Source of the DNA: an uncultured delta proteobacterium
GTDB taxonomy: Bacteria > Desulfobacterota > Binatia > UBA9968
Length of the DNA stretch: 64,000 bases
Assembly (NCBI GenBank): GCA_963847445.1
Contig: CAWJZV010000030.1
Location: forward strand, 160,001 to 224,000
Reading direction: 5' to 3'
Below the pieces are notes generated by a model. That model was not told the origin of the DNA, did not search any database, and saw only the letters and a program-made list of their open reading frames with translations. Shown here in pieces: positions 35,943 to 39,800 of the stretch. Each line of letters starts with the position of its first letter. Position 1 is the first letter of the stretch. The position numbers and the translations under genes were made by a program.

Positions 35943-36001
35943 GCTCAACGTTTGGGTGAGAGGCGCGGTCTGCCGCGACCTTCTCAACCCGATGGTTATC
36001 C
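35943..36001 (-). other. attC site (59 bp) closing the TA cassette
   Basis: Minus strand: R'' GGATAAC - catcg - GG(T)TGAGA ... TCTCACC - caaac - R' GTTGAGC, with one extrahelical base. Confidence 0.82.
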
Positions 36002-36029
36002 GGGATCAATCCCCGCACTCCCGCCGAAG

Positions 36030-36368
36030 CTAGTTCGCTATCCCCATCCAGAGTGCTAAAGCTCGGCTCACCCGCAGCACTAAATCATCCTCCAATCGTC
36101 CAATGCTCTGCGCAATGCGAGTGCGAGATACGGTTGTGACTTTGTCAATCATGAGCTGGGACAAGGAACGCAGGCCGTTGACAGGCGACGGTTCCAGAGT
36201 AAGTCGGAAGAGTGGGGCGTCCACAAGCGTACTCGTCACCGGAACAACAGTTACGCTCGCGTGCGTCTCGTTGAACAGGTCTGACTGTACAATCAGCGCG
36301 GGACGGGGCTTGCCATAGTCACCAGGTAGAGCGACTATCACAAGATCGCCGCGCTTCAACCGGTCCAC
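36030..36368 (-). CDS. PemK/MazF-family type II toxin
   Basis: KRGDLV...GDYGKPRPALIVQSD, VPVTS, NGL..SQLMIDK, IGRL. Confidence 0.92.
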   Translation of the reverse strand: MDRLKRGDLVIVALPGDYGKPRPALIVQSDLFNETHASVTVVPVTSTLVDAPLFRLTLEPSPVNGLRSLSQLMIDKVTTVSRTRIAQSIGRLEDDLVLRVSRALALWMGIAN

Positions 36369-36580
36369 CCTTCGGTATCCCGGGTCTCGTCGAGCCAGTT
36401 CAATACCTGTGCCTCAGCGCGCCGATGCTTTGACGCAGCCCGGCTTTGACGGCGGCACTCCTCAGCGAAACCTCGAGCCCTTGTATCTGGGATCCACAGC
36501 TGCACGAGTCGCAGTCCTGCACGTCTCATGCGGGTACGATAACGCTGCACGCTTCGAGCAGGCGAACTTTCCTTTTTCAT
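36356..36580 (-). CDS. MazE-like antitoxin (DUF3018 type)
   Basis: VQRYR.RMRRAGLRLVQLWIPDTRA.GFAEECRRQS; overlaps toxin start. Confidence 0.88.
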   Translation of the reverse strand: MKKESSPARSVQRYRTRMRRAGLRLVQLWIPDTRARGFAEECRRQSRAASKHRRAEAQVLNWLDETRDTEGWTG

Positions 36581-36681
36581 GACATGTAATATGGCATGCT
36601 ATGCAGCGGTGCGCCAGCACGCGCCCCCGAGCAACCAAAAGCTTGGGCGGTCGTCAGACGCGCCCGCCCGATCCCTCATGT

Positions 36682-36759
36682 GGATAACGCCCCGCATCAC
36701 CTGCCGACGGAAGCGGGCGAAGCCTGCTGTAGCCGGTCAGGTGCATGCGGATGTTCAAG
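36682..36759 (-). other. attC site whose R'' box is interrupted by the mobile element
   Basis: Minus: AAC-atccg-CATGCACC...GGTGATG-cggggc-GTTATCC; R' GTTATCC complements R'' GGATAAC of the downstream TA cassette. Confidence 0.82.
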
Positions 36760-36859
36760 TAAGCCGCTGCGCGGCAGTTAATCCGTCCTGACAATCGATT
36801 CTGTCCCACACCATCGATCTTCGATAAAAGTCTCCTATCTTTTCAGAAGGAGAACGTTT

Positions 36860-37750
36860 ATGAACGATTGGTATCAACGCATGGTCGCTACTCTGCAACT
36901 CAATGGGAAAGGAGAACGAACTCAACAAGCCTACACCCGCGCGGTCCGTATGCTCTCTGAGTTCTACGGCAAAACACCGGATCTGGTCTCGGAACCCGAG
37001 CTCCAAGAATACTTCCTCCACCGAAAAAACGTCAACCGCTGGTCACCCAAGACCATGCGCATCTGTTACTGCGGAATTCGCTTCTTCTACGTCAACGTTC
37101 TCGCGCGCGATTGGCACATCCTCTCGATCCTGCGCGCTCAGAACGAACACCGCCTACCGGCCGTCCTGAGCGTCGAAGAGGTCCGAAGCATTTTGGCCCA
37201 CGTCAAAACCTTCCACAACCACGTCTATCTTTCCACCGTCTACTCCTGCGGCCTGCGCCTCCACGAAGGCCTTCATCTCGAAGTCACCGACATCGACAGC
37301 CAGCGCATGATGATCCATGTCCATCGCGGCAAGGGCGCCAAGGACCGCTATGTCCCGCTGCCTCAGTCGACTCTTCATTTGCTGCGCCAATACTGGCGCA
37401 CGCACCACCATCCCCAGTCTTCTCTTCCCAGCTCTTGGCCGCAAGCGGCACAGGCGCCAAAGCAGGCGCTCCATCCCATGGCGAAAAGCAGCGTCCAGGG
37501 CGCCTTCCGCCGTGCCAAGTGGGAGGCCGGCGTTCACAAAAAAGGCGTTTCGATCCACACCCTGCGCCATTCCTACGCCACCCATCTCCTCGAAGCTGGC
37601 GTCAACCTGCGCGTCATCCAACGCTACATGGGCCACGCTCGACTGGAAACCACCATGCTCTATCTCCACTTGACCCAGAAGGGACAAGAAGATGCCTGTC
37701 AGCTGATCAATCACGTGATGGAGGGACTCGATCATGACCTCCATCCGTGA
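36860..37750 (+). CDS. Tyrosine recombinase with IntI-like N-terminal SAM-like domain, lacking the IntI-specific insertion
   Basis: LPAVLSVEEV, YSCGLR, GKGAKDR, HTLRHSYATHLLE, MGH, TMLY; probable compensating indels near 37418-37452. Confidence 0.92.
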   Translation: MNDWYQRMVATLQLNGKGERTQQAYTRAVRMLSEFYGKTPDLVSEPELQEYFLHRKNVNRWSPKTMRICYCGIRFFYVNVLARDWHILSILRAQNEHRLPAVLSVEEVRSILAHVKTFHNHVYLSTVYSCGLRLHEGLHLEVTDIDSQRMMIHVHRGKGAKDRYVPLPQSTLHLLRQYWRTHHHPQSSLPSSWPQAAQAPKQALHPMAKSSVQGAFRRAKWEAGVHKKGVSIHTLRHSYATHLLEAGVNLRVIQRYMGHARLETTMLYLHLTQKGQEDACQLINHVMEGLDHDLHP

Positions 37751-38827
37751 AATCTTCACCACCTTCGGCCCCGAGTATCTGCAACGCTACGCGACGACCA
37801 TGCCCAAGCACCCATCGCAAAGTCATCGATGCCATCATGGCTTGTCGCACCGAGGCCTGCGGCATCGCTTTCTATCAGTGCGATGGCTGTGCTGAGCCGC
37901 AACAGTTCTTCGTTTCTTGCGGCAATCGCCATTGCCCTACCTGCCAGTACACTAAAGCTCAGCAGTGGCTCCAAACCCGGATCCAGCGCCAACTGCCGGG
38001 GCATCACTTCCTGCTCACGTTTACCGTTCCAGAACAACTGCGTTCTTTCATGCGCCAACACCAGCGCGTCGGTTACTCGGCTCTGTTCAAAGCTTCTTCC
38101 GATGCCATCAAAAAACTAGCCACCGATCCAAAGCACATCGGTGGTGATCTGCCGGGCTTCTTCGGTGTGCTGCACACCTGGGGTCGAACTCTGCAGTACC
38201 ATCCCCACATCCACTACGTCGTTTCCGGTGGCGCTATGCATTCCTCCGATGGCTCCTGGCATCCCTCCAAAATCGATTTCTTTCTGCCGGTCCAAGCGCT
38301 CTCGATCATCTTCAGGGCTAAGTTCCGCGATCTGATGAAACAAGCAAAACTGTTCGATCAAATCCCACCCGAGCTCTGGCAGATTGCCTGGAACGTCAAC
38401 TGCCAAGCGGTGGGCTCCAGTCAAGCCACGCTAAAATATCTCGCCCCTTACGTCTTCAAAGTCGCCATCTCCAACTCGCGCATCGTTGGTGCCCGCGATC
38501 GCACCGTGCTGATTCGGTATCGCAAATCTCACAGCCAGCGCTCTCGAATCCTGGCTCTTGATGTTATCGAGTTCATCCGCCGCTTCCTCCAGCACGTGCT
38601 GCCCACCGGCTTTATGAAAATCCGCTACTACGGCTTTATGAACGCGCAACTGTAAGATTGCGCTCGAACGGATTCGTGGCCTGATCGAATTGAGCTACGG
38701 CTTCGCTATCGATCTCCCCGTCCCTGAGATCGAGCCCCCTCGCCGCAGTACCTGCCCAAGTTGCGGCGGGCTGCTCAAATTCCGCTCGGTCCTGCCATCG
38801 ATGAAGATTCTGCGCCGCTCGGGCTAG
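37734..38827 (+). CDS. IS91-family (Y2 HUH) transposase with Zn-binding domain (frameshifts near 37808 and 38650)
   Basis: CRT..CG, SCGNRHCPTCQ, FTVP, LHTWG..L.YHPHIH, YLAPY, EFIRRFLQHVLP.GF.KIRYYG, C-terminal CPSCGG. Confidence 0.9.
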
Positions 38828-39180
38828 CCGCCCATTCCCTTCAACCAATTCTGTTGGATTTCCAAATTGTTGCCCTGCTCGCTGCGGCCTGAAGGAGGCA
38901 GACGCCGAGCTGCGCTGACTTTACCGATGGCGGAGTTCCGATTCACTCTAGCTGCGGCAAATTCGAGCAGAACAAATAAATCTAAACACTCTCTACCCTG
39001 ACCATTTTCGCCGCGCACCGCAGTTCACCATGTGATTGGACCGCCACCCCCTTCGGCGCAAATCACCGACCACAACCTTTTCCCTTATATTGTTCCTGCC
39101 CGCCTTCATCACGGGCTTCTTGAACACCGGATTGAAACGACTCGGAAGTCGTCTCAATCCTTACGGGTTAGGCCACGTCT

Positions 39181-39489
39181 TCATGTCTTCAAAACTCGAC
39201 CTCGTCCGACAACTCGCGGGCCTTCGCGAACTGTAAACTCCGCTCCTGGCACGAGAGGAGAATAATCAACGTTCGGATGATAAACCAAACCCAGAGTCGC
39301 CGTGAATGAACTCTGCGCTTGGACAGACTTTGGCGCGGACAAAAACATTACACCAAGATACTCGCCCTCGCCAACAACGAGATGAGGACGATACAAAGTA
39401 GGCGTGGTCAAAACAGGCGGCTGCTCTCTCCCGCCTTCCGCCTTGGTGAAGAACGCCATCTCAACTTCAATCTTGGGAACGTCGTGCAT
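39181..39489 (-). CDS. Cassette ORF, EF-Tu C-terminal-domain-like protein
   Basis: TKAEGGR..P, YRPHL, FTVREGPRVVGRG.V resemble EF-Tu domain 3; bounded by GTTAGGC (39509-39503) and GCCTAAC (39173-39167). Confidence 0.72.
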   Translation of the reverse strand: MHDVPKIEVEMAFFTKAEGGREQPPVLTTPTLYRPHLVVGEGEYLGVMFLSAPKSVQAQSSFTATLGLVYHPNVDYSPLVPGAEFTVREGPRVVGRGRVLKT

Positions 39490-39502
39490 GGCGCGTGAAG
39501 TG

Positions 39503-39560
39503 GCCTAACTATTAAGTATACTGCCGGCATTTCCGGCGGGTTATCCAAGCGTGTAAATTG
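39503..39560 (-). other. attI-like site at the head of the array
   Basis: Minus: ...cagtatacttaata-GTTAGGC; AT-rich, no attC palindrome upstream; core matches R'' of the first cassette. Confidence 0.55.
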
Positions 39561-39800
39561 CTAAGAACAAAATCGACTGTAATATCGGTCAACAAGTCGC
39601 AGCTTGTCAATCTCTTCTCCGGGCAAACGCTGGCCGTGCGGCGGGGTATCCAGATACCAGCCCGCGGTATAGCTCGCTCGAAACCTTTCGGTCGGCCGAC
39701 AAGCACACGAATCACCGGTAACAAGCCGCGTAGTCCACTTTTCCTCAAATTCACCTCGTATCGTGCAGCTCGTCATGGTGACGTTATCCAATTGTCTCGC

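Follow-up and report, generated by a model that had tools for sequence, protein, structure and literature searches.

An attC-like right-end module in a recombinase-bearing IS91-family element from an uncultured Binatia bacterium

The element and its boundaries

The window analysed here is a stretch of 64,000 nt from the genome of an uncultured delta proteobacterium of the Binatia lineage (assembly GCA_963847445.1, contig CAWJZV010000030.1, positions 160,001 to 224,000 of the forward strand), and all coordinates below are counted from its first base. Positions 36753-39166 of the window are occupied by one decayed copy of an IS91-family element, which belongs to the subgroup with a tyrosine recombinase gene (Int) upstream of the Y2 transposase gene. 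The subject of this work is the segment 39112-39173, which probably represents the oriIS-type right end of this element together with the first bases of its target.

The Int gene is a plus-strand open reading frame (ORF) of 296 aa at 36860-37750 with the domains PF13495 and PF00589, and its stop codon overlaps the start of the transposase gene, a pseudogene at 37734-38827 on the same strand. Matches of the transposase ORF to PF14319 (E 8.2e-23) and PF04986 (E 7.2e-55) in Pfam identify a Y2 HUH transposase with an N-terminal zinc-binding domain, and the transposase of a related copy in a congener (G008) reached 343.9 bits with the NCBIfam model NF033538 (cut-off 125). The IS91 character that the first-pass annotation of this DNA had proposed is thus borne out by both databases. 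In the window copy, the transposase frame changes near 37808, where there is an extra C, and again near 38645, and the tblastn pieces lie in different frames. The Int ORF is open, yet its conserved LIFPALGR segment is out of frame from about 37412 to about 37480 in a three-frame comparison with the G008 copy, and only a single copy of the element was found in the genome by blastn. Due to the transposase frame changes, the displaced LIFPALGR segment and the single genomic copy, the window copy is regarded as decayed, and its autonomous movement is no longer possible. The G008 transposase lacks 11 nt near its start, so that copy is likewise not fully intact. When the genome was scanned with a fuzzy pattern for more ends, nothing but noise came up apart from the known copy. 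A 57-nt piece of the recombinase gene (37556-37612) matches many genomes at 78-88%, including the xerD gene of the same genome (C30:375336-375392); these matches are a conserved catalytic motif and no sign of further copies.

The left terminus, of the terIS type, reads GTTCAAG-T-AAGCC on the plus strand (36753-36765) and is kept at the left boundary of homologues, with a subterminal ter hairpin, GCCGC-tgc-GCGGC, at 36763-36775. At the right end, also on the plus strand, the internal arm GGCTTCTTGAAC (39114-39125) is the reverse complement of the left terminus except for one bulged T. It is followed by a short 5′ spacer, acc (39126-39128), an imperfect hairpin of 14 + 4 + 14 nt (39129-39160), in which the arms GGATTGAAACGACT (39129-39142) and AGTCGTCTCAATCC (39147-39160) enclose cgga, and a 3′ spacer, ttacgg (39161-39166), which holds the last bases of the element. 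GTT stands directly behind this spacer, at 39167-39169. A repeat search found the hairpin arms as 14-nt sequences, 93% complementary and 4 nt apart, and the outer inverted pair as 36752-36766 with 39112-39126. At stem position 8 the sense strand has an A.C mismatch and the antisense strand a G.T pair, and the inner stem is fully paired on the minus strand only. When an 86-nt right-end stretch was folded alone, z was -3.19 for the plus strand and -3.26 for the minus strand, and 0/200 shuffles were as good. The hairpin lacks terminator-like character, and zero matches at E <= 1 were obtained when 36500-39700 was compared with Rfam. The letters quoted in the first-pass annotation were all found in place, among them CAAG at 36756 and GAAC at 39122, which it had read as IS91-type tetranucleotides; both are present, but the operative boundaries are marked by GTT triplets at 36753 and 39167, which read AAC on the antisense strand.

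Five independent lines place the right end after the hairpin (39166/39169), as the first-pass annotation had assumed, and not at 39121, and hence the hairpin belongs to the element. The first is the G008 copy, which at 78% identity is collinear with the window from 36753 to 39171, with an identical hairpin and unrelated flanks. The second is the comparison of copies within one source. In G304 a stretch of 2511 nt, from GTTCAAGG to ...TTATGGGTTG, occurs twice with 99.8% identity, and a single acidobacterial contig carries a pair of copies (L068 and L069) that are 100% identical between (C)GTTTGAAC and ...ACCTAACGTTTT. The third comes from whole contigs, of which L055 (2514 nt) has the exact GTT-to-GTT extent, and L051 (2458 nt) repeats its first 24 nt as its last 24 nt, so that the right end is joined to the left end in the assembly, which indicates a circular or tandem form in that sample. 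The fourth is an uninterrupted related attC (G008:C7), which reads ...GCATGCGGAT|GTTAGGCC, i.e. the left flank of the window joined to its right flank (36752 to 39167). The fifth is the comparison of the G304 locus with contigs of four metagenome runs. In three runs, which belong to three studies, contigs pass from one flank to the other without the intervening 2507 nt (5 letters being ambiguous); other metagenome contigs carry the G304 element in different flanks, which break at the same two places. The empty sites in the G008:C7 attC and in the metagenome contigs hold a single GTT, thus there is no target duplication. Moreover, in every parsed element the left end begins with GTT and the right flank begins with GTT.

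Pairing of the joined ends and its conservation

When the two ends of the element were joined in silico, the minimum-energy fold was an outer stem enclosing the inner hairpin, with -28.7 kcal/mol on the sense strand and -30.3 kcal/mol on the antisense strand and z about -6 relative to mononucleotide shuffles; two of the ‘spacer’ bases were also paired. In this fold the left terminus (36753-36765) pairs with the internal arm at 39114-39125, and within it CTTGAAC (39119-39125) meets GTTCAAG (36753-36759) in the manner of R″ and R′ of an attC. The stem-spacer-stem form that had been predicted for the joined ends is therefore recovered by folding, and both stems proved to be conserved with compensatory change when covariation was checked in homologues, which provide the main argument against a chance structure. 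The two ends of the element differ, a ter hairpin on the left and a larger hairpin on the right, yet they share an inverted arm of 12-14 nt. The first bases of the right arm also fall within an extra small hairpin, GCCCG...CGGGC at 39100-39118, whose formation would compete with that of the outer stem.

For comparison, the ends of IS91 and of an IS1294-type element were mapped by comparing three plasmid copies of each, and the joined ends of these elements formed local hairpins only (-11.8/-9.0 and -19.2/-18.1 kcal/mol, respectively). The inverted arm of the left terminus, through which the junction pairs, was present at the right end only in the element described here. Thus, the cross-junction fold is specific to the Int-carrying subgroup among those tested.

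With the G008 transposase as query, relatives were found in 41 of 401 genomes of the phylum (G000 included). From a scan of genome contigs 80 loci were kept, in Desulfobacterota-type metagenome-assembled genomes, Planctomycetota, Acidobacteriota, Gemmatimonadota, Bacteroidota, Bacillota and Pseudomonadota. In 76 of them the transposase is immediately preceded by Int, and three of the other four loci are cut by the contig start. On rhizobial plasmids the pair is annotated as ‘tyrosine-type recombinase/integrase’ and ‘IS91 family transposase’. The G304 element (L018) is represented by at least half of its sampled 31-letter words in 14 DNA runs (highest shares 0.88-0.97). One source of these runs is a named organism, the others are metagenomes of soil, biogas, sludge, landfill, sediment and aquatic habitats, and the near-identical copies suggest a recent wide spread.

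Forty distinct right ends from several phyla share one plan, namely an arm ending in AAC, 0-4 nt, an imperfect hairpin, 4-7 nt and GTT, and the 3′ spacer is longer than the 5′ spacer in 40/40. The proximal stem runs for 7-8 bp and is then interrupted in 26 of the 40; 11 ends have extra stem bases on the 5′ arm and 5 have them on the 3′ arm, and the remaining 24 are symmetric. Spacers and hairpin together span 41 to 112 nt, the tip varies from ∼10 to ∼100 nt, and the distal stems all differ in sequence. Among 28 two-ended elements there are 20 different proximal-stem sequences (e.g. GGATTGA/TCAATCC, GGATTAA/TTAATCC, GATTGTA/TACAATC and CCTATCG/CGATAGG). The parser demanded a stem of at least 7 bp, which makes proximal pairing 100% by construction, and the finding is that such a stem stands at this place everywhere with changing letters. 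End-finding itself was imperfect: an early strict version reported ends, several of which were false, for 24 of 76 loci, and later versions still return chance pairs, so 30 elements were chosen by eye on length and ter hairpin, and the counts carry this curation.

When 17 right ends were aligned with MAFFT, the distal stems fell out of register, and for this reason RNAalifold predicted no pairs. The structure was then named on a 13-row alignment of the close clade, and each right end was also parsed singly. In the 13-row alignment, both partners vary in 5 of the 12 named pairs, and 81.9% of the cells are paired, compared with 77.6% in shuffles (3/500 as high) and with no more than 44.5% after the partner had been shifted. 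With a covariance model based on 13 ends, 24 sense-strand ends were found in 99 sources. The outer-arm pairs change by subgroup (GTTCAAG/CTTGAAC, GTTGAAC/GTTCAAC, GTTTGAA/TTCAAAC and GTTGGAC/GTCCAAC), and between subgroups the arm co-varies with the left terminus, the four variable positions being paired in 92% of cases against 59% in shuffles (0/2000), where detection had allowed at most one mismatch. The ter hairpin likewise has compensatory variants in other subgroups (ACCGC/GCGGT, GCTGC/GCAGC and AGCTCC/GGAGCT). Among one-by-one loops, 13 of 18 read A.C or C.A in the sense direction, and hence G.T in the antisense direction. Of 41 right ends, 29 have a hairpin that is more stable in its antisense form.

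Some right ends are rearranged. At L042:3835-3950 the unit TTGAAC-AAA-hairpin-TAAAGG stands twice in tandem, and an exchange between two TT/AA positions of the fold would give such a duplication, bounded by TT on both sides. In a Pirellulaceae copy (L052:3815-3870), a 13-nt unit, AGAGAACTTGAAC, occurs three times directly after the right arm. Two solo right-end modules in congeners (L005 in G012:C166 and L009 in G003:C32), with an interior of 12-70 nt and no genes, lie beside GTTAGCC and are remnants or one-ended products. L048 (OY764894.2, second copy) is rearranged as well: its left-end segment (863 nt, with 97% identity to the other copy) does not stand upstream of the right end but ∼0.9 kb downstream.

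The insertion target and the recombinase

The neighbours of the element are minus-strand cassettes, namely a 102-aa ORF at 39181-39489 and then mazEF. The R″ of a resident attC, GCCTAAC on the minus strand with the target GTT on the plus strand, lies at 39167-39173, and the distal 71 nt of this site lie on the other side of the element, at 36682-36752 on the minus strand, where spacer, L″ with two extra bases, loop, L′, spacer and R′ (GTTATCC, 36688->36682) follow each other. Joining 39173->39167 to 36752->36682 restores a 78-nt attC with 5/6 spacers and two extra bases on L″, which scores 12/12 for attC geometry. Thus, the element lies directly after the R″ AAC of the attC top strand and is inverted relative to the array. 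The owner of the split attC is the 102-aa ORF (39489-39181), which belongs to no Pfam family; the first-pass annotation had called its cassette EF-Tu-like, a name without a Pfam match at E <= 0.01. The next cassette (35943-36580) holds mazE (36580->36359) and mazF (36368->36033), with PF11455 and PF02452, and its own attC at 36001->35943. Upstream in the array a short attC-like site, GGATAAC ... GTTAGGC (39503-39546, minus strand), was read by eye and has no canonical score. Together, 35943-39546 form a small minus-strand cassette cluster between chromosomal genes, which looks like an attC cluster without integrase. No integron integrase (IntI) was found at E <= 1e-30 in the window genome, which is 91.8% complete; IntI over the cut-off is present in 6 of 26 relatives and in 90 of 251 genomes of the phylum.

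The same placement recurs in relatives. The left-junction pattern gave 44 hits, including some echoes of right ends. With R″ placed at the junction, the attC score was 12/12 in 5 of these hits and 11 in 2, and as a control, random GTT sites in the window genome reached 12 in 0/3720 and at least 11 in 25/3720. The window-like geometry was scored 12 in L002, L043, L052 and L090 and 11 in L041 and L048, and the element of G022 was read by eye to lie in the same attC type. When the junction was scored as R′ of a co-oriented attC instead, it never exceeded 10/12 among 30 elements. Two copies lie near a full-scoring integron integrase gene, G085:C34 43923-47142 at ∼0.2 kb and G185:C94 1226-5749 at ∼2.2 kb.

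Some members of the IS91 family carry a tyrosine recombinase. For Int, the best NCBIfam model is that of integron integrases, TIGR02249, with 165.7 bits in two stretches, and the best solved relative is VchIntIA (2a3v), again matched in two stretches. With a score under the cut-off of 265 and matches in two stretches, Int does not qualify as IntI. A quick tree of 86 rows separated 18 IntI and 57 IS91 recombinases from 11 XerC/D with a support of 100 in the Shimodaira–Hasegawa-like approximate likelihood ratio test. A first small tree had placed IntI inside the IS91 recombinases; with 86 rows this placement had a support of 60 and was given up, and only the split from XerC/D is claimed. The two-stretch matches indicate that Int differs from IntI in being without the IntI-specific insertion, and the portion of the preprint 10.1101/542381 available to us places ‘TRs found in IS91 and IS3 transposons’ in an ‘Integron-like subgroup’ without this insertion.

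A model of the circle junction and its alternatives

We favour, with moderate confidence and on the analogy with IS91, a model in which the right end is of the oriIS type, the junction of a single-stranded circle folds like an attC, and insertion takes place after AAC at the foot of a hairpin. The transposase would cut behind AAC on the antisense strand at the right boundary, rolling-circle replication would displace the nicked strand, and a second cut after ...CTTGAAC at the left boundary would close the circle. In the circle the ter and ori ends would pair, giving an attC-like stem-spacer-stem junction in which the cut site borders the outer stem. The target would be a hairpin in single-stranded DNA, which the circle would enter behind an AAC at the 5′ foot, and here and in several relatives this hairpin would be the top strand of an integron attC, entered directly after R″. 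In the last step, which we prefer but hold least certain, the integron-integrase-like Int would bind the fold and help or carry out the insertion. That Int works on the junction fold is a tentative proposal, and a fold serving both the transposase and Int is plausible. The right-to-left joint of L051 and the antisense bias of the mismatches are the only hints of the circle.

The likeness to IS91 is one of general design. According to the accessible part of PMC13181058, terIS has one palindrome next to the cleavage motif (GTTC), oriIS has one or two palindromes next to the target tetranucleotide, there is no target duplication, and single-stranded circles are formed of which only the bottom strand inserts. 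Like IS91, IS801, IS1294 and IS1294b, the element has a Y2 HUH transposase, no target duplication and a left end with a cleavage motif and one GC-rich palindrome, and its right-end palindrome stands beside a target similar to the ter motif. In IS91 the transposase start is overlapped by the small gene orf121, and here by Int, but the accessory gene here is a tyrosine recombinase, and the transposase is only 24-27% identical to those of these elements. The sense-strand boundary is GAAC, CAAG or GGAC in classical elements and GTT here, and several insertions here lie in attC, which is a further difference.

The likeness to attC lies in an AAC/GTT outer stem, an unpaired asymmetric spacer, an imperfect inner stem, a variable tip and G|TT boundaries at both junctions. 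In an attC, the unpaired central spacer is about 5 and 6 nt, as was also seen in the resident attCs. The first-pass annotation had called the right end attC-like, and this holds for the layout but not for the details, since the spacer is 3/6 instead of ∼5/6 and a mismatch at position 8 takes the place of extrahelical bases. The outer stem, of 12-14 bp, is a further difference from attC, and unlike an integron cassette the element encodes its own transposase and also moves outside integrons.

Several observations count against the proposed model. The IS91 analogy is one of topology, not of sequence. Across the 40 ends the spacers range over 0-4 / 4-7 nt, and the stem is disturbed at position 7-8 by a mismatch or small loop, mostly one-by-one at 8, and not by extrahelical bases in fixed places as in an attC. 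The four metagenome runs showed no circle, tandem or ‘go-back’ joint. Most insertions lie outside attC, including both G304 copies, and all eight scored acidobacterial elements (L061, L062, L064, L068, L069, L078, L101 and L105) are not in attC, with a best score of 10/12. The XerA model scored nearly as high for Int as that of integron integrases (164.5 vs 165.7 bits), and Xer proteins formed the only outside group in the tree. The statistics of proximal pairing and of the arms are partly circular, because detection required a stem of at least 7 bp and arms with at most one mismatch, and the antisense preference is modest, with a mean of -1.17 kcal/mol among related sequences. Covariation of the palindromes and terminal arms would also be expected if the proteins read duplex DNA.

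The strongest alternative is a plain ori/ter pair of the IS91 type served by the Y2 transposase alone, in which ter-ori pairing would align the cut sites for accurate termination, a job in which Orf121 assists in IS91, and Int would be unrelated, e.g. a multimer resolution factor or a regulator. HUH enzymes read hairpins, and the lack of target duplication and the many insertions outside attC speak for such a pair. The left end (GTTC and one palindrome) also fits terIS and the right end fits oriIS as both are described in the available text of PMC13181058. We nevertheless consider this account rather unlikely, since Int is kept beside the transposase in 76/80 loci across phyla, with a stop/start overlap in the window, and its closest characterised relatives recombine folded single strands; moreover, the two Int-less elements tested were without a cross-junction fold, and the favoured structured target resembles the junction of the element itself.

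It is much less probable that the element is an integron cassette, the right-end module being a working attC moved by a host integron integrase. On the plus strand the unit does run from G|TT to G|TT with an attC-like site at its 3′ end, IntI is over the cut-off in congeners and in 90 of the 251 phylum genomes, and two copies lie 0.2-2.2 kb from intI (G085:C34 and G185:C94). Bottom-strand exchange between two attC sites, however, would place the unit at R′, whereas in the attC cases it stands at R″, opposite to cassettes. Spread outside integrons with identical copies and many flanks, spacers without the canonical lengths, the lack of extrahelical bases and the lack of an IntI match at E <= 1e-30 in the window genome, which is only 91.8% complete, further argue against this reading. 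Finally, the idea that the hairpin is the attC of the 102-aa cassette, with the Int-transposase pair as an ordinary minus-strand cassette or as an insertion ending at 39121 before GAAC, both of which the first-pass annotation had listed, can practically be dismissed: the minus strand 39173->39119 does resemble R″-spacer-stem-spacer-R′, but homologues, copy comparisons and empty sites contradict it, as the hairpin travels with the element into unrelated flanks and non-integron sites, the uninterrupted relative joins 36752 to 39167, and the resident attC reaches 12/12 only as 39173->39167 with 36752->36682.

The model of an oriIS-type end with an attC-like circle junction has parallels in other systems. 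Folded single-stranded DNA forms the recombination or cleavage site in attP(+) of the CTX phage and in the IS200/IS605 family (IS608). IS608 finds its cut sites by pairing with bases beside the hairpin and uses a Y1 HUH enzyme and no recombinase, and the CTX phage uses host XerCD and a dif-like forked hairpin. IS1111-attC elements, which have a DEDD transposase, and group IIC-attC introns, in which a ribozyme acts with a reverse transcriptase, enter attC in a site- and orientation-specific manner, and to our knowledge neither carries an attC-like fold of its own. The existence of these two as mobile elements inserting in attC, like the element here, is recorded in the accessible part of PMC9229058, as is ISShvi3, an IS91-like element beside attC in a Shewanella integron; the latter was compared through a one-sentence description, which gives no mechanism or fold.

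Implications

The IS91 family itself is already known, as is the kinship of IS91 recombinases with integron integrases, which is stated in the available portion of preprint 10.1101/542381. In the literature searched, which did not extend to supplements, we found no description of attC-like end pairing across a circle junction. Nor did we find one of insertion at attC R″ in a fixed place and a fixed orientation, the nearest being the one sentence on ISShvi3 in the part of PMC9229058 accessible to us. A far-reaching and, in our view, improbable extension is that Int-carrying IS91 elements are a living relative of the system ancestral to integrons, in which HUH circles provided the DNA, the junction served as a proto-attC, and an IntI-like recombinase without the extra domain swapped one strand with an AAC hairpin foot; attC and junction would then be homologous or mimic each other, hence the homing to R″.

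Integron annotation faces a practical hazard, as it may take the right-end module for an attC and the whole element for a cassette. The element family is a third kind of attC invader beside IS1111-attC elements and group IIC-attC introns. If the fold is a recombinase substrate, the element would bring together the supply of single-stranded DNA by a rolling circle and an IntI-related recombinase. In that case the co-evolution of attC sites and the extra domain of IntI, which is raised as a question in the accessible part of PMC4792948, would become testable.

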